Origin: an uncultured Chromatiales bacterium
GTDB taxonomy: Bacteria; Pseudomonadota; Gammaproteobacteria; SZUA-140
Length of the DNA stretch: 64,000 nucleotides
NCBI GenBank assembly: GCA_964437335.1
Contig: CAYTGL010000006.1
Location: 24,523-88,522, forward strand
Direction of reading: 5' to 3'
A program made the translations under genes and the position numbers. The notes beneath the pieces were generated by a model. The model saw only the letters and a program-made list of their open reading frames with translations. It was not told where the DNA came from and searched no databases. Below are positions 2,323 to 16,918 of this stretch, one piece after another. The first letter of the stretch is position 1; the number at the start of each line of letters is the position of its first letter.

Positions 2323-2346
2323 TAAAGGGTCCGCAAGGACCCTTTA
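2323..2346. repeat. REP-like hairpin TAAAGGGTCC-GCAA-GGACCCTTTA at a convergent junction
   Basis: Perfect 10-bp stem with a GNRA loop that includes the stop codon of the minus-strand gene. Confidence 0.7.
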
Positions 2347-4950
2347 TTGTATCCGGCGATCGAGCGGCGCGAGCTCCCGCAGGGAATCCCGATACCGCGC
2401 CGCCAACACCTGGTTTCCCGCCCCAGCCTCGAGCCGCCACAACGCATGCAACACCTCGATGTGATCAGGCCGGATAGAGAGTATCCGCTCCAGCGCCGTC
2501 CGTCTATCGATGCCGAGGCTCATCCCCTGATCGAGACTCGCATACATGCGGTCAGCGATATCGAAACTGATCCATCGATCCCGTGGATTCGCCTCCAAGG
2601 CCATGTGCATGAGCCTGGCGGCCTCCTGAGCCCGGTCGCTCAGTGACGCGACCCAGGCCAGGGTCGCAATCTCTGTCGCGATGTAGGCGCCCTCGAACGC
2701 CTCGAAATTCTCGGCGGGGATCTCGAGCATCGCGGCAGCCGCCTCGACTGAAGGCCTGTCTGCCAGCAACCGGCCGGTCAGCCTGCCGAGATCGAATTCA
2801 CTGCCATAGCGCGCCTGGGGCAGACTGAATTCGATGCGCGGCGCCCATTCATCCTGAACCGGACCGTCGTCATGCCGGATTTCGCCCCAATATCTGCCGA
2901 GCCAGGTCCACAAGCCTTCGCCACCGGTCAGTGCATCGCGTTGTGACGATTCCATCCAGGTCATCCGTTCGATGACAGCTTCCATATCCAGCCGGCCCCG
3001 GGGCGTCCCCACCATCGCTACCCTGAAGCCGTCGATAAAGTAAGAGGCCCCGGGGAACACGCGCGCGAAACTGCGCATGACAATATCGAGCGAGCGCGCA
3101 TCAAACTGGTTCAGGGCCAGCCACTGCACAAATACGCCATCCTCGGCAAGACGCTCTCGCACGCGCCAGAACTGCTGCATTGACAGCAGATTACTGCGTC
3201 CAACCAGGTCGGGATGGAACAGGTCACCCACAATCACATCATAATTGCGACCGGCGGCGCGGAGAAAGCGTCTGACATCGTCGTGCACGATACGGGCCTT
3301 GTCGGTGATGCCGTGATTGACCGGCCCGAAGTACGTACCGGCAGCGGCGATTGCGCCTGCGGACAGTTCGACAGCGACTACTGACAGATCCGGAAGCGCG
3401 AGCGAACCCGCCGCGGTGATTCCGGTGCCGAGTCCGAGAAACAGCGCCTCCTTCGGCTCCGGATGCAATATCAGCGGCAGGCGCGCCATGTTCATCTGCG
3501 CCGCGACCGCAGCCGGCTCCGTGGATGCCTCCATGCGCCGCAGGTCCGACAACAATACCCGCTGGCCATCCGGCTGTTCGATGACATGGGTGATCGACAG
3601 CGCATCTTCGTACACCATCATGTCCCGACTGCCGGCATGCGGTCCAGGCAGCAGCCGGTTGACTTCCGGCAGGGAACCGATCGGCCAGCTGAGCGCAAGC
3701 AACAGTGGCAGCGCAAACCACATTCGCCGGGACGTCGACCAGGCCATGCCGAACAGAAAGAGCAGCAGCGCTGCGACACAAATCGTCGCTGGCGTCCCGA
3801 TCCACGGCACCAGGATGAAACCCGCCGCCAGGGCGCCGACCGAGGCGCCTGTTGCATTCGCGCCGTAGAGCCAGGCGCCGGTCAGGTTATCGCCGGCGCC
3901 GATGCCGCGGCTGAGCAGCGGCAGCCAGGCGCCGAGCACCAGCGTCGTCGACAGGGTCAGCAGCGCAATTGCCAGGCCTTGGGCAACCAGCGCCGCCCCG
4001 AGCGATCCGAATTCAGCGCCGTCCGCCCAGGCCGCGAGTACCGACAAGCCCGCAAGACTGAGGAGCGCCGTCGCGCTTGCAACGGGCGGGAACCACGTGA
4101 GACCCGTGGAAACCGGGATCCGCCTGGCCAGCAGGCTACCCAGCCCAATGCCGATCAGGAAGATGCACAGCAAGATTGCCAGCACATATTCGGTGCGCAG
4201 CAGAATCATGCCATACAGGCGCGTCCAGCCGACCTGCAGCATGAGCGCCGCTGCGCCTATGCCGGCATAAAACACCAGCGTTCGCCAGGGAGGGCGCGCG
4301 CTGGTCACGATCGTAGCGCCCGCCGCGAACTCGTGCCTTGCAGATAGCGAGATCAGTACCGCCGCGAGCGCGACCAGCAGGCCCAGGGTCGCGACCAGCT
4401 GGATCGCGCCTGCCCAGCCTACCAGCGGCAGCAACAGCAGCGGCACCAGGGCGCCGCTTGCTCCGCCCAGCGTGTTCAAACCGTACACCGAGACGATCGT
4501 CACTGGGGTGTTTTCGAAATAGCGTAATACCAGCGGGAAACCGACACCGAGCGCCAGCGCGGGAAAGAACAGGATCAGAAACGAAACTACGCCCTGCAGC
4601 AGAAACCACGACTTCAGCGGCAGGACAACTGCGATTGCGCCGAGCAATCCGTCAACGAAAGCAAACAGCCAGGGCATCGACAATGCGAATATCGCGACGC
4701 CCCCCTCGAGCAGCGCGAACAGGACCAGTGGGCGTGTAAACCGGCGTACTGACCAGGCTCCGAGCAAGCCGCCCGCGCCAAGGCCTGCCATGAATGCGAC
4801 CAGCGTGACGACCACGCCGAAGTTGCTGACGCCGAACTGGATGGACAACATGCGCACCCACAGGACTTCATAGGCGACGCCGGTGACACCGGACAGGAAG
4901 TAGATCCCGAGCAGCAGCGATGTCCACCTGCTGCCAGCGGTCGCCTGCAT
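2344..4950 (-). CDS. Fused MFS-like membrane domain / spermidine-synthase-like SAM-binding protein
   Basis: Multi-TM N-terminal half (SGVTGVAYEVLWVRML, LRTEYVLA) followed by LFLGLGTGITA, VELS and YDVIVGDLFHP. Start taken at MQATAG (4950). Confidence 0.85.
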   Translation of the reverse strand: MQATAGSRWTSLLLGIYFLSGVTGVAYEVLWVRMLSIQFGVSNFGVVVTLVAFMAGLGAGGLLGAWSVRRFTRPLVLFALLEGGVAIFALSMPWLFAFVDGLLGAIAVVLPLKSWFLLQGVVSFLILFFPALALGVGFPLVLRYFENTPVTIVSVYGLNTLGGASGALVPLLLLPLVGWAGAIQLVATLGLLVALAAVLISLSARHEFAAGATIVTSARPPWRTLVFYAGIGAAALMLQVGWTRLYGMILLRTEYVLAILLCIFLIGIGLGSLLARRIPVSTGLTWFPPVASATALLSLAGLSVLAAWADGAEFGSLGAALVAQGLAIALLTLSTTLVLGAWLPLLSRGIGAGDNLTGAWLYGANATGASVGALAAGFILVPWIGTPATICVAALLLFLFGMAWSTSRRMWFALPLLLALSWPIGSLPEVNRLLPGPHAGSRDMMVYEDALSITHVIEQPDGQRVLLSDLRRMEASTEPAAVAAQMNMARLPLILHPEPKEALFLGLGTGITAAGSLALPDLSVVAVELSAGAIAAAGTYFGPVNHGITDKARIVHDDVRRFLRAAGRNYDVIVGDLFHPDLVGRSNLLSMQQFWRVRERLAEDGVFVQWLALNQFDARSLDIVMRSFARVFPGASYFIDGFRVAMVGTPRGRLDMEAVIERMTWMESSQRDALTGGEGLWTWLGRYWGEIRHDDGPVQDEWAPRIEFSLPQARYGSEFDLGRLTGRLLADRPSVEAAAAMLEIPAENFEAFEGAYIATEIATLAWVASLSDRAQEAARLMHMALEANPRDRWISFDIADRMYASLDQGMSLGIDRRTALERILSIRPDHIEVLHALWRLEAGAGNQVLAARYRDSLRELAPLDRRIQ

Positions 4951-4966
4951 GCTCAGTTCCGGGCTG

Positions 4967-5350
4967 TTAGAAAGGGAAGAACCAGACGATCGCTGTGACG
5001 GCATGGACGATCGCGAGGAAGACACTGACTCCGGCGAATATCATGTGTGCCAGAAACACCTGCTTGCCGAACGCCACCATCGAGACACCGAGCACGGCGG
5101 TGGTGATAATGGTGATCAGCAGGACAAAGCCCATCATGAACAGGATCTGGTGCTTGCGTTCGTCACTGATCGCGACGACGTCGCTCTTGACGACCTCCCC
5201 CTCGGTGAACCCCCGTAAGACATCGAAGGGCTTGTCTGTGTCGTCTTCCGCGCGGGAGACGCCGGGGGAGACCATTACACCGACCAGGACCAGCAGGAGA
5301 CATACGATCCACAGCCTGGTCGACCGGTTACTGCCTGCAAACACTGTCAT
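4967..5350 (-). CDS. Hypothetical membrane protein with signal-peptide-like N-terminus and two C-terminal TM helices
   Basis: 127-aa ORF with a 4-nt overlap with the upstream gene. His residues lie in the TM segments (LAHMIF, IVHAV). Confidence 0.7.
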   Translation of the reverse strand: MTVFAGSNRSTRLWIVCLLLVLVGVMVSPGVSRAEDDTDKPFDVLRGFTEGEVVKSDVVAISDERKHQILFMMGFVLLITIITTAVLGVSMVAFGKQVFLAHMIFAGVSVFLAIVHAVTAIVWFFPF

Positions 5351-5601
5351 CGCCGGTTTTCGTTATCGTCGTTGTCGGTCGGGTCATCGGTCTCATCGGG
5401 CTTCGCGAACCTCCAGTGCATGATTGCCATCAGGATCAGCGGCACCATGACCAGGGGCAGCAGAAATACGAAGATCATCCACGGGGTATTGATGCTGACA
5501 GTCACCCAGCGATAGCTGTCAAAGGCGTGCGCGGCCTGTGACTGGCCCATCAACAGCGAGAGGAATATCCCGAATTGAAATGATCGTGCTGTAATGCTCA
5601 T
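5347..5601 (-). CDS. Hypothetical small membrane protein
   Basis: 84 aa, signal-like N-terminus, one TM helix, acidic tail, and 4-nt overlaps on both sides. Confidence 0.7.
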   Translation of the reverse strand: MSITARSFQFGIFLSLLMGQSQAAHAFDSYRWVTVSINTPWMIFVFLLPLVMVPLILMAIMHWRFAKPDETDDPTDNDDNENRR

Positions 5602-6662
5602 TCGACATCCTGCGCGACTCTGAATCCGAAGAAATCAGATGCATAGTTGGGCAACGAAAAATTCCGGTGAAAGGACGAGGTCGAGAACGGATCGCTCTTC
5701 CAGGACCCGCCACGGATGACCTTGTAACGCTCGTTTGTCGGCACGAACTCCGCGATCGACAATGACCGGAGCGAAGCGGAATCCGGAATCGCCGGCAGGC
5801 TCGCGTAGAACATGTGCTCGGGCGCCGGCGATCCGGGATAGGGCAGAAAATCGTCATCGACCCATTCGGCGATGTTCCCAGCCATGTCCATGACGCCGTA
5901 GGGACTCGCGCCATTCTGATACCGCGTCACTTCTGTCGTTGATCCTACACGATAATAGGTGTTCAGGCGATCCGGATCCATCCGGTTACCCCATGGCCAG
6001 CGCCAGCCTTCAGGACCTCTGGCGGCCCGCTCCCATTCCGCTTCGGTCGGCAAACGCATGCCGGCCCATTCGGCATATCTTTTCGCATGGAACCATGAAA
6101 TCATCGCCACCGGATGCAATTCGATACCCGGCGGTATCTTGCCGCCGGTCCAGTGTATCGGTGGCCGCTGATTGGTCGCAGCGATATAGCGCGCATACTG
6201 GGCATTTGTCACGGGATATTTCGCGATACGGTACGCCGCCATCTCGACGATATGCTCAGGCTGGTTCTGCACGTCCGCGCGCGGCATGTTGGTCCCCACC
6301 GCGTAGGGGCCGGCCGGAATCTCGATCATCGTACCGATCTCGCGCCACTGCTCGGGCGTCAGTAATGCCTCCGCCTCTTCAACACTGTAGCTGGCTACCA
6401 GTCCGGGCATATACTGATGCTCGACCTCGAGGAAAAGATCCTGCCCGGCCGCGCGTTGCCTGTCCCTCGCCTCGTTGATATCGTAGGTCACCTTGCCGCG
6501 CATATCGTTCATACGGTTTTCACCGAGCTTCAGCACATGCAGGCTTCCGCCGAGGAAAGTCAGCACGAGACACGTGACGAGGGTTGCGGTCATGTACCGC
6601 TTCCTGATTTTCACCTGCCGCTTGTCGCGGAGGACTCCCTGGGGTGTATAGCTGATGCTCAT
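5598..6662 (-). CDS. Membrane-anchored FGE-sulfatase (SUMF1/EgtB/PvdO) fold protein
   Basis: IPAGPYAVG, YPVTNAQY, HPV..ISW..A..YA.WAGMRLPTEAEWERAARG, DMAGNIAEW, RGGSW and GFRVA motifs. Confidence 0.9.
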   Translation of the reverse strand: MSISYTPQGVLRDKRQVKIRKRYMTATLVTCLVLTFLGGSLHVLKLGENRMNDMRGKVTYDINEARDRQRAAGQDLFLEVEHQYMPGLVASYSVEEAEALLTPEQWREIGTMIEIPAGPYAVGTNMPRADVQNQPEHIVEMAAYRIAKYPVTNAQYARYIAATNQRPPIHWTGGKIPPGIELHPVAMISWFHAKRYAEWAGMRLPTEAEWERAARGPEGWRWPWGNRMDPDRLNTYYRVGSTTEVTRYQNGASPYGVMDMAGNIAEWVDDDFLPYPGSPAPEHMFYASLPAIPDSASLRSLSIAEFVPTNERYKVIRGGSWKSDPFSTSSFHRNFSLPNYASDFFGFRVAQDVE

Positions 6663-7171
6663 CGGTCAGAACCCTTGGGTAATTCCGCAGTGCTCGCCGG
6701 CTTGGGATCAATCCTGCCGTACTTCTTGTGCAGTTTATGGAGATTGTGCCGTTCCGTCCTGCCATAGGTTCGCCTGACCATGACTTCGCCGATGACGCCT
6801 CCGACCGTCGCAAACTCGACGCAGAGTATGATCACGAATATCCAGTAGCCGATCGGCAGGATGACCCCGCCGTCAGCCGGCGTGGTTCCATACACCTGAT
6901 AATAGAGGATCGAGTGAACGATGAGCGCAGGGGCATGCGCAAGTATTTTCCCGCCCAGTCCATAAACCAGCGATACGGCAATGCCTGCAAGAAAGGGCAC
7001 GAAAAACAGCGTCAGGACCCACTGGGGCGTATAGGTCGCCGGGCCATAATAAAATTCCAGCCTGACCCCGAGCAACTTTCCTCCGAGGTAAACCACGACC
7101 GCGCCTGCTGCAACCGCGCCCGCGGCGACGCAGCAGTCCATCAGGCGGCTTTTTATCTGCGGTCTATTCAT
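6659..7171 (-). CDS. Hypothetical 4-TM membrane protein
   Basis: 170 aa, hydrophobic, with overlaps to both operon neighbours. Confidence 0.75.
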   Translation of the reverse strand: MNRPQIKSRLMDCCVAAGAVAAGAVVVYLGGKLLGVRLEFYYGPATYTPQWVLTLFFVPFLAGIAVSLVYGLGGKILAHAPALIVHSILYYQVYGTTPADGGVILPIGYWIFVIILCVEFATVGGVIGEVMVRRTYGRTERHNLHKLHKKYGRIDPKPASTAELPKGSDR

Positions 7172-7655
7172 TAACCGGTTGATACGTCAGGCCTGTCAGA
7201 ACTTCGTATTCCGCACGCTTGACTTCCTCGAGGTACCAGTCCTCAACCTTCAGGCTGGCAAGGTAGGCAGCCAGCAGACGCCGCTCCTCTTCCGGCAGAT
7301 GCGCATAGGATGGCATGCGGTACTCAGCCTTCAGGCGAGACGGCAGGATTGTCTGGGGATCTCCGGAGGAGATATATTCGTAGAACCACTCCTCGCTTCT
7401 GAGTGTACCGATGCCATCGAGCGCGGGGGCGGGCACGCTCTGCAACCAGTTTCTGACCAGCCACAGGGAATGGCAGTTCGTGCAGTCATTGCGCTTGACG
7501 ATCGCTTCCGCCTGAATCTGCATTTCACGGGGCATGGTCGTGTAGAAAGGTATTCCGGGATCCGGCTCACCCGTACTCCTGATACCGTTGTAGGTCGCGA
7601 GACCGATGACCAGCGCGGCTATAGCGATGTAGATGTTCCGCTCACCGGTTCGCAT
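7164..7655 (-). CDS. Membrane-anchored monoheme cytochrome c (CcoO/NorC-like)
   Basis: N-terminal TM helix, CTNCH, APALDGIG..RSEEW and a distal RMP. Confidence 0.85.
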   Translation of the reverse strand: MRTGERNIYIAIAALVIGLATYNGIRSTGEPDPGIPFYTTMPREMQIQAEAIVKRNDCTNCHSLWLVRNWLQSVPAPALDGIGTLRSEEWFYEYISSGDPQTILPSRLKAEYRMPSYAHLPEEERRLLAAYLASLKVEDWYLEEVKRAEYEVLTGLTYQPVNE

Positions 7656-7929
7656 GCTTCTCAGCGTGCCGCCGTGCCTTCTCTTTCAGAAACTCGCCTC
7701 TCAGCTCAGTCTGATGCTCGATGACTTCCCGCGACTTGGCATACTCCTTCGGGTCCATCTTATCCTCGTCATCCTTGTCGAAAACGACATACTTGATGTC
7801 TTCGTCGAACTGGTAGTTCTTCGCCGCCCAGCGCAGGCCGACAATTACACCGATCAGAATGCCGGCTGCGGCGATCATCCATACATAGATAGTCCAGCCG
7901 TCGGGTAATGAATGCAGAAATTCTTTCAT
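7642..7929 (-). CDS. ccoS: CcoS-like cbb3 maturation protein
   Basis: TM helix followed by WAAKNYQFDEDIKYVVFDKDD, resembling the CcoS/FixS W.....QFDD motif. Confidence 0.65.
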   Translation of the reverse strand: MKEFLHSLPDGWTIYVWMIAAAGILIGVIVGLRWAAKNYQFDEDIKYVVFDKDDEDKMDPKEYAKSREVIEHQTELRGEFLKEKARRHAEKHANR

Positions 7930-8678: not shown

Positions 8679-8831
8679 TTACTTGAACGGGTTGTCGTCG
8701 TTGTCGCCTGCCTGCTTTTTCTCCCAATACCGGTAGCTGTCGACAAAGAAGACCCCGTACACGGCAAAGCACAGGAAGACCACCGCGATTATTGCAGCGA
8801 ATACTCCCGGTGCGTAATCAATGTCGATCAT
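8679..8831 (-). CDS. 50-aa single-TM protein, CcoQ-like by size and position
   Basis: Manual translation gives MIDIDYAPGVFAAIIAVVFLCFAVYGVFFVDSYRYWEKKQAGDNDDNPFK. It has an ATGA overlap with the upstream stop. Not in the ORF track. Confidence 0.7.
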   Translation of the reverse strand: MIDIDYAPGVFAAIIAVVFLCFAVYGVFFVDSYRYWEKKQAGDNDDNPFK

Positions 8832-9493
8832 GCTGAGACCCCCTTCTTCATGTTCGGCTTCTTAGAGAAATGCGGCAGACGCTTGCAGACAATGACCATC
8901 GCCAGAATAAAGTAGGACACATAGAGCACGTCGATCGTATAGCCCTTGTCCCACCACGGTTGCGTGCGTTTACGCAGGCCATCCGGTCGGTACTCGCCCT
9001 CAAAATTCGCGAGCACCAACTGATCGTAGACGACGATATAACTTTCGAGGCCATAAGGTCCGCCGGCGACCGCGGCTTCCCTGATCTGGGGAGCAATCAA
9101 CTGCAGGTCATACCACGTCAACTGCGGACACTGGCGATCGATGAGCCCGGCCAGGCGACTGTCGTGGCCGCTGGCGATATGAGCCTCCTTCGCGTGGCGA
9201 CACACGAAATTCTTCTTTTCCTCGGGCGTCTTCAGTGCCTGGACTTGAGGGGAATCCATTATTTCCACCATCGGGTAATACAACTCGGCTGTCGGCCTCA
9301 GCCCCCAGATCGGCATCGTGACCATAAAAGCGGTAACAATGATCAAACCGAGCAGAAAAGTAACCGGAAACGGGAGACGGTTGTTGCCTTCCCACAGACC
9401 GCCCTGCTTTTCGTGCTCCCAGCGCTGAATCGCTTTCCTGTTTTCCTCTTCGTCAGCCATGCTGTACAGAGGATTATCCATTTTCCAGGCCAT
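8828..9493 (-). CDS. CcoP N-terminus-like 2-TM protein without heme c motifs
   Basis: HEKQGGLWEGNNRLPFP plus a TM helix resembles the CcoP HEWDGI.ELNNPLP segment. It directly follows ccoO and has no CxxCH. Confidence 0.65.
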   Translation of the reverse strand: MAWKMDNPLYSMADEEENRKAIQRWEHEKQGGLWEGNNRLPFPVTFLLGLIIVTAFMVTMPIWGLRPTAELYYPMVEIMDSPQVQALKTPEEKKNFVCRHAKEAHIASGHDSRLAGLIDRQCPQLTWYDLQLIAPQIREAAVAGGPYGLESYIVVYDQLVLANFEGEYRPDGLRKRTQPWWDKGYTIDVLYVSYFILAMVIVCKRLPHFSKKPNMKKGVSA

Positions 9494-9508: not shown

Positions 9509-10468
9509 TTATTTCAAGCTGGTCAAAACCCAGTCGATTACTGCCCGGATCTCGCTATCACGTGCATATTCCGGTACCTCCGGCGGATAGGCCCGCAAGC
9601 CCTGGCGATACTCGTTATACTCGCGACGCCACTTCGGATAGTCGATCTTGTTGCCCTTGGCATCGACGCGACCCCACAGATAATCGAAGCGCGGCATAAT
9701 CGAGTTCGGCTGAGTCAGGCGAGGATTGAAGAAGTGCATCATCATCCACTCGCGCGACGAATTGCGGGAGGCTACGTGCAATATGTCGGGCGCCTTGCGA
9801 TCCGATCCAAATGAAGTCGGGTTTTCACCGTTCATGTCGCCGACATACGGAGGCCAGCCAAAGATCTGGAAGTCCTGGGCTGCCTCGGGCAGCAGCGTAT
9901 GGCACCACCAGCAGCCTTCGGTGACATAGACCGTCTTGCCCCTGGCGACATAGCGGTGATTCTCGTCTCCGGTGGCACGCAATATTTCTTCAGGCATCCA
10001 TCCGCGTGTCGCGGTCGCGTTTTCGATGTAGGCCCACTCCTCGCCCTTGCTGCTCTTGCCATAGCTGATCGTGAAAACCGCACCGGTGTTTTTGTCCGCC
10101 TGGTCGATGCGTCCCTTTTGAATGCTCAGCTGTTGTACTGTCGATCCAAGATTCGCTGGATGGTTGACCGTCGATGCGAACGGCGTGCCCGGCTTGTAGA
10201 CATAGGCACGAATCGCGGGATCAATTGGTGCGCCGGTCTTCGGATCCTTGCTCAATATCACCGTAATCGGCTTGCCCGCACCACGCACAAACGGATCTTC
10301 ATAGGAAAATCCGATTACGCGACCATTCGACAGCGCCTTGTCCAGCCCCACCCAGGTCGAGTCCGCCGACCTGAAGTCGAAGCTGGGCAGGAACAGGGTT
10401 ATCGTCATCGACAACCCGAGCATTGCGCCGACGCCTACTGATCCGAGTTTATATTCTTGGAATGCCAC
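9509..10468 (-). CDS. ccoO: cbb3-type cytochrome c oxidase subunit II with a large periplasmic insertion
   Basis: G..VY..EGCWWCHT, FGSDRKAPDI, W...HF.NPR..QPNSIMPRFDYL. GTG start after a GAGGGGAG RBS. Confidence 0.9.
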   Translation of the reverse strand: MAFQEYKLGSVGVGAMLGLSMTITLFLPSFDFRSADSTWVGLDKALSNGRVIGFSYEDPFVRGAGKPITVILSKDPKTGAPIDPAIRAYVYKPGTPFASTVNHPANLGSTVQQLSIQKGRIDQADKNTGAVFTISYGKSSKGEEWAYIENATATRGWMPEEILRATGDENHRYVARGKTVYVTEGCWWCHTLLPEAAQDFQIFGWPPYVGDMNGENPTSFGSDRKAPDILHVASRNSSREWMMMHFFNPRLTQPNSIMPRFDYLWGRVDAKGNKIDYPKWRREYNEYRQGLRAYPPEVPEYARDSEIRAVIDWVLTSLK

Positions 10469-10565: not shown

Positions 10566-11975
10566 TTACCTTTCGTAGGCCAGCTCGTGCGCATAACGGC
10601 CCTTGGGCACCACGGTCCCCTCACGGGCGGTCATATACATGTTGTAGAGCCAGACCATGTTTCCGGTGAACACCATCGTGCCGCCGATCCAGCGTCCGAT
10701 CATGTAGGGATGCTCGGCGACGACGACGTCGATATACGGCACCTGGTATACCTTGGCGGCGCCCTGAATCAGACCCGCGACCGTCATCGTGATCCAGTAG
10801 ATGCAGAATCCGATGAGCACGAACCAGTAGTGGAAGTTGGCAAGCACCAGCGAGTAGAGCTTTCTGCGCAGCACCTGCTGCAAACCGAAGTACACGGCCG
10901 CGATTTCGAGGAAGCTCGACATGCCGAGCAGCGCGAGGTGCGCGTGCGCCACGATCCAGCCGGTGCCGTGGATGTACCAGTTGATCGCGCGGGTCTGCTG
11001 GAAACCGCCCTGCATGTTCAGCGGGATGGCGAGCAGCACGCCGGTGACCGAGAACTTGATCTCGATGTTCTCGACGAACATGCTCCAGCGCCCTTTCATC
11101 GTCAGCAGGATGTTGGCGACGAACGCGACCGCCGGGATCAGGATCAGCACGCCCTCGACCGAAGCGAAGGACTTCAGCCACTCCGGCAGCGGCGCCGACA
11201 GCAGGTGATGCGAGGCCGGCGTCGAGTAGAACGCGATGATCGACCAGAAATGCAGGTGACCGACGCGGTGCGAGTACAGCGGATTACCGGTCAGCTTCGG
11301 GATCGTATAGTATGCGATCGCCGCGGCCACCGGCGTGATCCACAAGCCGAGCACGTTGTGCGCGAACCAGAAGGTCAGATAGCCCTCGGTCAGTCCGGTC
11401 AGATTGAACAGTTCCGGAGACTGGCCGACGACGAACGTCGTCATGACGAAGAAGATACAGGCCCCGAAGAACCAGTTCGTGATGTAGATACCCTGCGTTT
11501 TTCGCTGCGCAATGGTCATCCAGACGTTGATTCCCAGCGGCAGCAGTACACCGAATATGATGACCAGGTCGATCGGCCAGATCAGGTCGGAGTACTCGCG
11601 GCCTGAGGTGAATCCCGTCCACAGCAGGATCAGGCCGAGCGACAGACCGACATTCCACATAAAGGCAGTCCAGAGACCGAGCTTTTCAGACCACAGTCTG
11701 GTGTTGCCGAGGGCCGGCGTCATGTACATCATGGTCATCGCGAAGGCCATCGAGATCCAGCCCAGGATGACCGCGAGCACGTGCACCTGGCGCATGTGTC
11801 CGAACGCAAACAACTCGGTCCCCGTCACCATATCCGGGAAAGCGAGTTTGGACGCATTGAACGAGCCGAGGCCGGTGCCTACGATGAACCACAGGATCGA
11901 GGAAAAACCGAAGAAGAGCGTCGCTGTTCCCGGCGGGATATCCTCAGATTTCGCGAACAAATATTTCAGTATCAT
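10566..11975 (-). CDS. ccoN: Divergent cbb3-type (C-family) heme-copper oxidase subunit I
   Basis: QVHV (heme b), REYSDLIWPID, WFAHN (CuB), YSTPASHH (Tyr plus CuB His pair) and WIVAHAH (b3/b ligands). GGAGG RBS. Confidence 0.95.
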   Translation of the reverse strand: MILKYLFAKSEDIPPGTATLFFGFSSILWFIVGTGLGSFNASKLAFPDMVTGTELFAFGHMRQVHVLAVILGWISMAFAMTMMYMTPALGNTRLWSEKLGLWTAFMWNVGLSLGLILLWTGFTSGREYSDLIWPIDLVIIFGVLLPLGINVWMTIAQRKTQGIYITNWFFGACIFFVMTTFVVGQSPELFNLTGLTEGYLTFWFAHNVLGLWITPVAAAIAYYTIPKLTGNPLYSHRVGHLHFWSIIAFYSTPASHHLLSAPLPEWLKSFASVEGVLILIPAVAFVANILLTMKGRWSMFVENIEIKFSVTGVLLAIPLNMQGGFQQTRAINWYIHGTGWIVAHAHLALLGMSSFLEIAAVYFGLQQVLRRKLYSLVLANFHYWFVLIGFCIYWITMTVAGLIQGAAKVYQVPYIDVVVAEHPYMIGRWIGGTMVFTGNMVWLYNMYMTAREGTVVPKGRYAHELAYER

Positions 11976-14062: not shown

Positions 14063-14599
14063 TCATCCCTTCTTCCGTTCGATCACGAGCGTTTCAATGA
14101 CCTGATCGAGCTCCCCATACAGAAGGCGACCGGGGCGCTTGAAGCGCACAATGCCCTCCTCGTCGATCAGGAAGGTCCAGGGCTCTCCGGTGACGCGAAA
14201 CGCGACAAAGGCGCCGGGGTTCTGGTATTGATCCATGTGCAGGAAGACGATGCCTTGCTCTTCGTACTTGTCCATCATCGCCGACAGCATCTGCAACTGC
14301 TTGTCGCAGACCGTGCAGTGCGCCGGGGTCGCGAATGCGATGACGACCGGGCGGCCTTCCTTCAGCACATGATCGAGCGAATATTTGTACATCCGCGGAT
14401 CCGGATGGCGATAAGAAGTCAGGCGCGACAAATCCTGGCCAACGTCATCCAGGGTCACGGTGCGGATAACCGGGGCCTTCGTGCCGAGCTTGAGGGTTCC
14501 GACCGGAGATTCGACGCAGGCCCCGAGAACCAGGACAGCGACGAACAGTACGGCGAGCTTAATCGACGCGATTATGCGGCTTGCCGGTCCCTCAGCCAT
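14063..14599 (-). CDS. Thioredoxin-fold lipoprotein with CxxC
   Basis: Lipobox LVLGAC, then FATPAHCTVC and GEPWTFLIDEEG. Confidence 0.8.
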   Translation of the reverse strand: MAEGPASRIIASIKLAVLFVAVLVLGACVESPVGTLKLGTKAPVIRTVTLDDVGQDLSRLTSYRHPDPRMYKYSLDHVLKEGRPVVIAFATPAHCTVCDKQLQMLSAMMDKYEEQGIVFLHMDQYQNPGAFVAFRVTGEPWTFLIDEEGIVRFKRPGRLLYGELDQVIETLVIERKKG

Positions 14600-15152
14600 A
14601 GGTCTTCTCCTGCTGATAATTCGGCTCCTGCAGATTGATCTCGGATGAGCGTCTGCTGGTGCGATAGATATTATAACCCCAGATGCAATTGGCCAGCAGC
14701 ACGAGCGTTCCGAAAATGCCGCCCGCCATCATTAACGGCAGCACCAGCATCGTCACCTCGTTCGGCGGCAGGGACACGCTCGCGCGTCCGCCGACAACGC
14801 CGGCCGCGCCGAAACAGCCAACCAAGCCGAGCAGGCCGAAGTTATGCATCCAGAAATGCACCTTGACGAGGGCGAGGCTGTAGATCGGGCGCTTGACCAG
14901 GCGCGGTACCAGGTAATAGATCGCACCGAAAATCGCCATCTCGACCCAGCCGAGCAGGTTCAGATGGGCATGGCCCAGCATGATCTTGTCGCCGTGCGGC
15001 CGGTTGCGGATGAAATGCGCGACATCGGGCATCATGTTGACGAGGACGCCCCAGCTGAATCCGATGATGCTGTAGATGATGCAGGCGTAGATGAACCACA
15101 GGGTGTACCGGTTGAAATCCCGTTCCCGTTCAGTCAAGCGCGGCTCGCTCAT
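14592..15152 (-). CDS. Second stand-alone 4-TM heme-copper oxidase subunit I-like protein
   Basis: GHAHLNLLGWV...YYLVPRLVKRPIYSLALVKVHFW matches CcoN helices X-XI. Confidence 0.85.
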   Translation of the reverse strand: MSEPRLTERERDFNRYTLWFIYACIIYSIIGFSWGVLVNMMPDVAHFIRNRPHGDKIMLGHAHLNLLGWVEMAIFGAIYYLVPRLVKRPIYSLALVKVHFWMHNFGLLGLVGCFGAAGVVGGRASVSLPPNEVTMLVLPLMMAGGIFGTLVLLANCIWGYNIYRTSRRSSEINLQEPNYQQEKTYG

Positions 15153-15176: not shown

Positions 15177-15749
15177 TCACTCGTTTTCGACAGGCTGAAT
15201 CTCACGGATATCCCTGTACTGCTCACGCCAGGAATCGGGCACCCACATGTTCAACATCCGGTCGATGAATGGCGAATCTCCCGGTGGCGGCACCTTCGCG
15301 ACCGACGAGCCCGCATCGGCTCTCAGTTCAGACAGGAAGATCGCGATCAAGCGGCGATCCTCTTCCGACATGCCCGCGACGTAGGCGGCTTCTTTCGGCG
15401 GGGACCCGTGATCGATCGTCGGCGCGCCATAGACTTCTTCGGGATTTGCAAGGAAGCGCTCCAGGTACTCGAGCGAACGCGCCGAACCGATGCCGTCGAG
15501 CGACAGCCCCATGCTCGTGCCCGCGCGCAGGGCCCGATGGCAGGCATTGCAGTTGGCCCGCTGATACAGGCCGGCGCCCTTGCGGCCCTCTTCGGAGAAA
15601 TCGAAATACGTGAGCTGCTCGAATAGCGGGGTATCCGACTTCATACGCACCGTTTCGAGCCCGATGTAGACGAATATGGCGCTGACAAAAAACACGCCGA
15701 AGATCATCAGAAGGATTTTTTCGCCCAGCTTCAGAGGATTTTTACTCAT
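15177..15749 (-). CDS. Membrane-anchored monoheme cytochrome c
   Basis: N-terminal TM helix, CNACH and LSLDGIGSARSLEYLERFLANP. Confidence 0.85.
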   Translation of the reverse strand: MSKNPLKLGEKILLMIFGVFFVSAIFVYIGLETVRMKSDTPLFEQLTYFDFSEEGRKGAGLYQRANCNACHRALRAGTSMGLSLDGIGSARSLEYLERFLANPEEVYGAPTIDHGSPPKEAAYVAGMSEEDRRLIAIFLSELRADAGSSVAKVPPPGDSPFIDRMLNMWVPDSWREQYRDIREIQPVENE

Positions 15750-15974: not shown

Positions 15975-16817
15975 TTATTGACCTATTGCCTTCATCCTAT
16001 CATGAGCCACATGGACACCGTGGTCATAAGGCGTGCGGTTGCTGCCGGTCGCAAAGTAGGGATCCGCTACCGAGAGGTAGGCTGCGGCGTCCAGAATATC
16101 CTGATCGGATAACTTCTGGGCCACCTTCTGCATCTGCCCCATCGGATCGTTGGCCCTGCTGCCGTCGCGCCACTGCCTCAACTGGGCGACCAGGTACGTA
16201 TAGCGCTGCTGGCCGATCATCGGGTAAACCGGCGGTGCGCCGGCCCCGCCCACGCCATGGCAGGACTTGCAGGCCGGTACGCCAGGTCCCTGACTGCCGA
16301 GATCACGCGGATAGCCGTCAGTCCTGACCGGGCTGCCAAACTCGACGAGTTGACGGCCACGATAGGGCCTGCCGACCTCGACGCCGCTCGCGGCCAGCTC
16401 TTCGAGGTAGCTCTCGTTGAACAGATATGGGCTGGCAGGAAATTTGTTGGCGAGATAGGTCGCGACATCGATCCTGTCCTGAGGACTCAGCGCCGCGGCG
16501 AATGCGTTCATGACCACGCCCGCGCCCTGCGGCGTACGCTTGTTAGCGGCGAAGTCCTCGAGTTGCTTGTACAGGAACGTAAAGAACTGACCGGCAATCC
16601 GGGGAGCGCCCAACGCATCAATTCCGGTCCCGTCTTCACCGTGACAGGACAAGCAGGCTGCCGCATCGCCTTTCCCTTGTGTAAAGATTTTATGGCCATT
16701 GGCCATGTCGCCCGGCCCGAGGGAGTACAAACCCTTCGCAGCCATCGCATTACCCGTCGACAGCGCAAACCCGATCATCACCGCAATCGCTGTCAATACC
16801 AGCTTCTTGTGTCCCAT
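15975..16817 (-). CDS. Dihaem cytochrome c4-type periplasmic cytochrome
   Basis: Signal peptide, CLSCH and CKSCH, PRIAGQ...YL.KQL and QQRYTYLVAQL. Start taken at MGHKK after GGGAGGGG. Confidence 0.9.
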   Translation of the reverse strand: MGHKKLVLTAIAVMIGFALSTGNAMAAKGLYSLGPGDMANGHKIFTQGKGDAAACLSCHGEDGTGIDALGAPRIAGQFFTFLYKQLEDFAANKRTPQGAGVVMNAFAAALSPQDRIDVATYLANKFPASPYLFNESYLEELAASGVEVGRPYRGRQLVEFGSPVRTDGYPRDLGSQGPGVPACKSCHGVGGAGAPPVYPMIGQQRYTYLVAQLRQWRDGSRANDPMGQMQKVAQKLSDQDILDAAAYLSVADPYFATGSNRTPYDHGVHVAHDRMKAIGQ

Positions 16818-16918
16818 TTGCAGACCCCTCCCGCGTGTAAACTCGCCACTTTCCGTAGAGTCACCGCCGCAGTTCACTGCGATAGCTCCTCGCGAAGATT
16901 TCTATTGTTATTCAGAGC

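Follow-up and report, generated by a model that had tools for sequence, protein, structure and literature searches.

In solved structures of cbb3-type oxidases the CcoP helix is found at the TMH8/9 face of CcoN, and CcoH, which is membrane-anchored and has a periplasmic domain, adjoins CcoN (PMC7876108). Cytochrome c4 is a known natural donor to the canonical cbb3 enzyme, as cited in PMC11549363 and as represented by a supercomplex (PMC10556555). Active cbb3 forms are detectable without CcoP in some species (PMC2924362), and CcoP-less cbb3 clusters are known as the subtree that Ducluzeau et al. 2008 called 'distal' (cited in PMC8788666 and PMC7029218). The distal ccoNO genes of Sideroxydans lie in the 99th expression percentile, and the supplement to these expression data holds entries for ccoN and ccoO only (PMC8788666). 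The genome paper of Ferrovum JA12 found cbb3 subunits I and II only, with subunit III missing, and considered that co-localised c-type cytochromes might replace subunit III (PMC4725956). The existence of CcoP-less cbb3 clusters, the remark on the missing subunit III of Ferrovum and the idea of its substitution by cytochromes are already published. A literature search found no description of a haem-less homologue of the CcoP anchor encoded after ccoO.

The window, by which the whole stretch of 64,000 nucleotides analysed here is meant, carries a cbb3-like operon on its minus strand in which ccoN and a ccoO-like gene are followed by a gene for a small membrane protein, here termed X. The genes of this operon and of the module upstream of it are as follows.

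15975..16877 (ATG start 16817), minus strand: dihaem c4-type cytochrome of a facultative upstream module (two cytochrome c domains)
10566..11975, minus strand: CcoN, catalytic subunit of a divergent C-family haem-copper oxidase, 469 aa (COX1, alignment with 3MK7_A)
9509..10468, minus strand: CcoO-like monohaem subunit, 319 aa (FixO, PDB CcoO chains)
8828..9493, minus strand: gene X, haem-less, two-TM, CcoP-anchor-like protein, 221 aa (ORF, homologues, dN/dS, no haem motif)
8679..8831, minus strand: 50-aa single-TM protein, translationally coupled to X through an ATGA overlap (tblastn, 43/86 loci)
7642..7929, minus strand: 95-aa membrane protein with a weak CcoS/FixS-like match (FixS 17.4 bits; 83/86 loci)
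7164..7655, minus strand: membrane-anchored monohaem cytochrome c, 163 aa, with a CcoO-like haem domain (Cytochrom_C 23.7 bits, weak FixO/ccoO matches)
2344..7171, minus strand: co-conserved downstream genes for a 170-aa membrane protein, an FGE-sulfatase-domain protein, two small membrane proteins and an 893-aa spermine-synthase-like membrane protein (Pfam, synteny)

CcoN is matched by COX1 with 243 bits and by the TIGR ccoN model with 218 bits, under the cut-off of 583, and aligns with P. stutzeri CcoN (3MK7_A) at 1.4e-61. In this alignment the His of helix II, H206, Y250, H256/H257 and the HxH of helix X are all present, so that the six His ligands of haem and CuB and the cross-link Tyr of helix VII are aligned. 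An assignment of CcoN as a nitric-oxide reductase was rejected, as neither the cross-link Tyr nor any of the CuB His is missing and the PDB matches are to cbb3 CcoN only. Among the K-type channel and active-site positions of the P. stutzeri enzyme, Y223, H243, T215 and Y251 are retained, and the K-channel residues S240 and Y317 are replaced by Gly and Ala, thus the proton path may differ. The CcoO-like subunit matches FixO with 53 bits over residues 176-266 only, and the PDB CcoO chains at 1e-12 through the pairing of residues 175-271 with 57-154. It carries one haem motif, CWWCH, and a single CxxCH is found in 80/80 orthologues. Between its TM anchor and its haem domain the subunit also contains about 140 aa that are inserted relative to solved CcoO chains (about 200-240 aa), and the extended length (310-329 aa) is kept in all 80 orthologues.

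Gene X starts 15 nt past the stop of the ccoO-like gene and is preceded by a ribosome-binding site, GAGGGGGA, while its own stop overlaps the start of the 50-aa ORF as ATGA. The original prediction had placed X in the slot after ccoO, and this position holds well beyond the window: the order ccoN-ccoO-X is found in 86/86 loci, among them those of Ferrovum, of a Nitrospirae MAG and of a third lineage, in which X has a 121-aa version. Homologues in the protein database (n=320) all have about 205-230 aa and are all labelled 'hypothetical'. In a scan of GTDB with one genome per species, relatives were present in 305 species, the nearest belonging to uncultured Chromatiales MAGs with 84% identity, so that a gammaproteobacterium of this kind is the probable source of the window. 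Comparison with the three nearest loci gave a dN/dS of 0.09-0.125 for gene X, and of 0.06-0.07 and 0.05-0.07 for CcoO and CcoN, respectively, in the same comparison. More than 20 residues of X are invariant across 82 orthologues sharing 44-84% identity. Gene X is a real gene under purifying selection, with a dN/dS of about 0.1. A search for RNA evidence located the window sequence in DNA metagenomes only.

The complete gene order in the 86 loci runs from a small ORF through ccoN, ccoO, X, the (50-aa) gene, a 108-aa and a 95-aa gene to the monohaem cytochrome c, the 170-aa protein, the FGE-sulfatase-domain protein, two small proteins and the spermine-synthase-like protein. The downstream set is syntenic in 72-80 of the 86 loci, Ferrovum included. 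Nearly all loci, Ferrovum again among them, retain both the FGE-sulfatase-domain protein (5598..6662, minus strand) and the 893-aa multi-pass protein with a spermine/spermidine-synthase domain (2344..5025, minus strand) together with the oxidase genes. The 50-aa protein, whose C-tail is acidic, is CcoQ-like in architecture but is not matched by Pfam FixQ. The 'RWAAKNYQFDED' stretch of the 95-aa membrane protein resembles CcoS, a protein of cbb3 maturation, and the 95-aa protein is a possible maturation factor.

The 221 residues of protein X divide into the following segments.

9443..9493, minus strand: conserved cytoplasmic N-terminal peptide MAWKxDxPLYSxxDEE, aa 1-17, absent from CcoP (alignment A1)
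9365..9421, minus strand: FixP_N-like cytoplasmic motif W25-E-x-E-x-x-G31-G-L-x-E35-x-N37-N-R-L-P41-x-P43 (Pfam and hhalign)
9293..9364, minus strand: TM helix 1 with the periplasmic-face motif T59-M-P61-I-W63-G64-x-R66-P67 (AlphaFold, conservation)
8963..9292, minus strand: periplasmic alpha-helical domain, aa 68-177, in place of the CcoP dihaem domains (AlphaFold, Foldseek, profile search)
8882..8962, minus strand: motif Q178-P-W-W-D-K-G-Y-T-I-D188 with TM helix 2 (conservation, AlphaFold)
8831..8881, minus strand: basic cytoplasmic tail, with the motif K204-R-L-P-H-F beginning at the last TM2 residue (conservation)

The AlphaFold model, computed with 30 homologues, has a mean pLDDT of 71.7 and displays two helices, 42-63 and 183-204, which flank a helical domain modelled with a pLDDT of 82-93 over residues 71-160. 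The second TM helix that the original prediction had seen near the end of the protein is thus the helix 183-204. A CcoP-like motif followed by a TM helix, which was said to open the protein, is present together with the helix 42-63; the motif, however, is not at the very N-terminus, since HEKQGGLWEGNNRLPFP constitutes residues 27-43 and the 26 residues before it form a conserved peptide (MAWKxDxPLYS...), of which M1, D6, P8, Y10 and E15 are invariant or nearly so in alignment A1. Five Lys/Arg occur among the 17 residues of the tail, from which, through the positive-inside rule, we infer an N-in/C-in topology. The residues invariant in the 82 orthologues are G31, N37, P41, T59, P61, W63, G64, R66 and P67 in the N-terminal half and Q178, P179, W180, D182, G184, I187, D188, K204, L206 and P207 in the C-terminal part. 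E35 is a Glu in 61/82 orthologues and His, Ser or another residue in 21/82, and each of the 9 remote relatives that were inspected has Glu at this position. For the periplasmic domain no match to a known fold was obtained: a Foldseek search of the AlphaFold model against the PDB returned nothing at E<=0.001. Similarly, neither the X family profile (A1) nor the remote relative P0138 matched PDB sequences, those of the CcoP chains included, at E<=10. The invariant residues fall at the helices and the membrane-face motifs, and the periplasmic domain is dispensable in remote relatives, which points to a membrane-embedded, structural role of protein X and not to a periplasmic redox role.

The claim that X carries no haem c, made from the absence of CxxCH, is borne out over the entire family. 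None of CxxCH, CxxxCH or CxxxxCH occurs in the target or in any of its 84 orthologues (0/84). As had been noted, two isolated cysteines, Cys99 and Cys122, are located in the periplasmic part; a third, Cys203, lies in TM2, and none of the three is conserved. No cytochrome Pfam domain was matched in protein X or in the members tested, and the NCBIfam search, which covers the ccoP equivalog TIGR00782, gave 0 families for protein X at E<=1. Protein X, having neither the two haem domains nor a match to TIGR00782, is therefore not a CcoP.

The similarity of X to the N-terminal anchor of CcoP becomes visible only when the family-wide alignment is used. Protein X alone matches Pfam FixP_N over residues 31-65 with 12.6 bits and E=0.12, its sole Pfam match, where the cut-off is 24.9 bits. 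FixP_N was matched at E<=1 in 4/30 members of the clade of the target, and was the top or only Pfam match, at a constant position, for almost every one of the approximately 50 members scanned; automated Pfam annotation flags FixP_N on a minority of the family members. The full-length 211-aa relatives P0226, P0231 and P0233 score 24.6-24.7 bits, against the same cut-off of 24.9, and the remote two-helix relatives P0138, P0156 and P0155 exceed it with 33.7, 32.9 and 28.4 bits. P0138 is in turn matched by the profile of the target family at 8e-13, by way of the two TM motifs. When 1.84 billion representatives were searched exhaustively with the profile, 34 matches were obtained, among which were short relatives of 93-183 aa and no dihaem CcoP or fusion protein. 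What these short relatives have in common with X is limited to the N-motif with TM1 'FPLWGxR', followed by 'PWWDxGY' and TM2. All remote relatives retain 'PWWDxGY' with its TM helix, and the periplasmic middle of the short ones is variable or missing. They also carry 'YDGIxEG...P', which resembles the CcoP motif. In a Nitrospirae MAG and one other lineage their genes, too, come after ccoN-ccoO.

Alignment of profiles by hhalign paired X residues 28-63 with 'HSWDGIEExxxPLPxWW' and the TM segment of CcoP. The 55-sequence family alignment compared with the N-termini of four PDB CcoP chains gave a probability of 75% and P=2.6e-5, and the broad family compared with 90 FixP_N sequences a probability of 82% and P=1.1e-5. 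In the first of these comparisons column-shuffled controls scored 11.6 +/- 2.9 versus 30.7 observed, with 0/200 reaching the observed score, and block-preserving shuffles reached it in 1/200. The match covers a short segment of about 31-36 columns, half of which are TM helix. When the own clade of the target was used alone, the comparisons were not significant (P=0.028 and P=0.33), the value of 0.33 being that obtained against the 90 FixP_N sequences. Profile comparison with the CcoP N-terminus had been named as a check on the original prediction, and its outcome is divided: the broad family is significantly similar, whereas the own clade is not. The homology proposed from the single sequence is accordingly to be located at the level of the family, where P ranges from 1.1e-5 to 2.6e-5 and relatives score up to 33.7 bits, rather than in the target, with its 12.6 bits and E=0.12. 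With this family-level evidence and the intermediates, the cytoplasmic motif and TM1 of X are likely homologous to the N-terminal anchor of CcoP.

In our judgement X is probably a haem-less third subunit in a divergent oxidase of the cbb3 type (C family). Because its anchor appears homologous to that of CcoP, X would be placed at the CcoP face of CcoN, with TM1 and the cytoplasmic motif at the site which the CcoP helix takes up on CcoN in the solved cbb3 structures. There they may lend stability to the complex and close off the K-type proton channel at its cytoplasmic mouth. This proposed role at the channel mouth is founded on E35, which pairs with the second Glu of CcoP 'DGIEE' (residues 41-58 of 8SNH_G) in a register that is constant throughout the comparisons, the Glu being present, as above, in three quarters of the orthologues. 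The second Glu of 'DGIEE' is CcoP residue 49 in Pseudomonas numbering, and in P. stutzeri CcoP Glu49 is said, in the 2010 work of Buschmann et al., to mark the point at which the proton channel opens to the cytoplasm. The alignment is suggestive of Glu35 as a residue of the proton-channel entrance. The dihaem domain of CcoP would be replaced by the helical periplasmic domain, from which the chain would return to the membrane through TM2.

With the two CcoP haems missing, electrons would have to enter at the CcoO haem, reaching it directly from a separate cytochrome. Such outsourced electron entry in the X-type oxidase, as originally predicted, is plausible, although the soluble c4 offered as its example is facultative: the c4 module is found upstream of ccoN in 46/59 loci (those with at least 4.4 kb of upstream DNA), whereas the 163-aa monohaem cytochrome lies downstream of X in 74/75 loci (those extending far enough). 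By this linkage the operon-encoded, membrane-anchored 163-aa cytochrome (7164..7655), which has one CxxCH in 80/80, is the most likely candidate for the main donor; its Ferrovum counterpart, from gene order, would be FERRO_02510. The c4 (15975..16877), with two CxxCH, remains plausible as an optional additional donor. Besides the dihaem c4, the upstream module, present in the same 46/59 loci, comprises a monohaem cytochrome c, an AhpC/TSA-like protein, a 152-aa protein and a 186-aa membrane protein (14592..15152, minus strand). The latter matches COX1 at profile positions 303-411 only, with 53.8 bits, and contains the His pair 'GHAHLNLLGW', like helix X of oxidases. The membrane-anchored monohaem cytochromes of 190 aa (15177..15749, minus strand) and 163 aa (7164..7655, minus strand) are apparently paralogues, and in loci without the upstream module the 190-aa query matches the site of the 163-aa gene.

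X might instead be an assembly or stability factor, similar to CcoH or CcoQ, that acts in the maturation of CcoN-CcoO and is absent from, or sub-stoichiometric in, the finished enzyme. The surroundings of the gene would suit this role, as the operon also encodes other small membrane proteins and the weakly CcoS-like one, CcoG-like genes close the cluster in related loci, and CcoH likewise is membrane-anchored, with a periplasmic domain, and sits beside CcoN (PMC7876108). We nevertheless consider it unlikely, since none of about 50 X members matches Pfam FixH or FixQ at E<=1, the sole recurrent similarity is to the anchor of CcoP, a structural subunit, and X occupies the ccoP slot, translationally coupled within the structural genes. 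The resemblance to CcoP could itself be convergent or compositional, arising from a short Gly/Asn/Pro juxtamembrane motif next to a hydrophobic helix, with X serving another part of the cluster, such as the FGE-sulfatase/spermine-synthase-like module. The sub-threshold FixP_N score of the target alone, the narrow-clade hhalign P of 0.33, the lack of PDB sequence matches and the one block-preserving shuffle in 200 that equals the observed score are all in keeping with such a coincidence. It is, however, made quite improbable by the FixP_N scores that rise gradually to 33.7 bits in relatives with both TM motifs, by the constant register, by the column shuffles (0/200 reach the score) and by two loci (L005 and L006) that have neither the FGE nor the spermine-synthase gene and in which X still follows ccoN-ccoO.

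A decaying CcoP remnant, functionless after loss of its haem domains, would also lack the cofactor motif and have non-conserved cysteines, as X does. This explanation is effectively refuted by the conservation data, that is, by the dN/dS of about 0.1, the more than 20 residues invariant in 82 orthologues and the length and synteny kept in 305 species, and is given hardly any probability. For X as a haem-less third subunit, a further step may be contemplated as a tentative, possible history. The two-helix haem-less X would preserve the ancestral third subunit of C-family oxidases, in which the FixP_N anchor came first, and the exchange of the periplasmic loop and TM2 for a dihaem cytochrome of the c4 type would have given rise to CcoP. 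In the CcoP-less enzymes a CcoN-CcoO-X core would accordingly receive its electrons from a separately anchored, CcoO-like monohaem cytochrome, in effect a 'split CcoP'. The origin of CcoP thereby becomes testable, as a fusion of the anchor with a c4-type cytochrome versus a loss of haem.

In iron- and sulfur-oxidising bacteria, CcoP-less cbb3 oxidases rank with the terminal oxidases of highest expression, and all that has so far been said of their subunit make-up is 'subunit III missing' (PMC4725956). With a conserved haem-less relative of the CcoP anchor in the subunit III slot, there is a concrete candidate for a third subunit in the purified enzyme, and the 163-aa membrane-anchored monohaem cytochrome is singled out as the likely point of electron entry. 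If the proposal is true, the structural and possibly proton-entry role of the CcoP N-terminus is naturally separated in the X system from electron entry.

Among the closest described counterparts is the cbb3 cluster of Ferrovum sp. JA12 (FERRO_02570/02560), which is the same gene cluster as that of the window. The two operons are syntenic throughout, and FERRO_02550, the gene after ccoO, encodes a protein sharing 44% identity with protein X (E=3e-53). In the papers searched, this gene was left 'hypothetical', and its homology with the CcoP anchor went unnoticed. From the orthology with the CcoP-less Ferrovum cluster we infer that the oxidase of the window belongs with the 'distal' CcoP-less group. 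In Ferrovum sp. JA12 (L004 1..4853) the oxidase operon directly follows genes of Alternative Complex III, comprising molybdopterin, Fe-S, NrfD, ActD and cytochrome c subunits, which hints at a functional pair of Alternative Complex III and cbb3. CcoH/FixH and CcoQ/FixQ resemble X as small membrane proteins encoded with the cbb3 genes and are placed beside CcoN and CcoP in the complex; unlike them, X has two TM helices and another size, and no sequence similarity to them was detected. X has in common with CcoP/FixP its slot in the operon, behind ccoN-ccoO, its cytoplasmic motif G-[IL]-x-E-x-[DN]-N-x-L-P, which leads into a TM helix with 'MP-x-W' at its end, and its orientation, with a cytoplasmic N-terminus and the bulk of the protein in the periplasm. 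In contrast to CcoP/FixP, in which FixP_N is joined to two Cytochrome_CBB3 domains (TIGR00782; 3MK7_C, 6XKW_p, 8SNH_G), X is without a cytochrome domain. Its anchor is continued instead by a helical periplasmic domain and by TM2, which returns the chain to the cytoplasm, and X carries the conserved motifs 'QPWWDKGY' and 'KRLPHF', both absent from CcoP.
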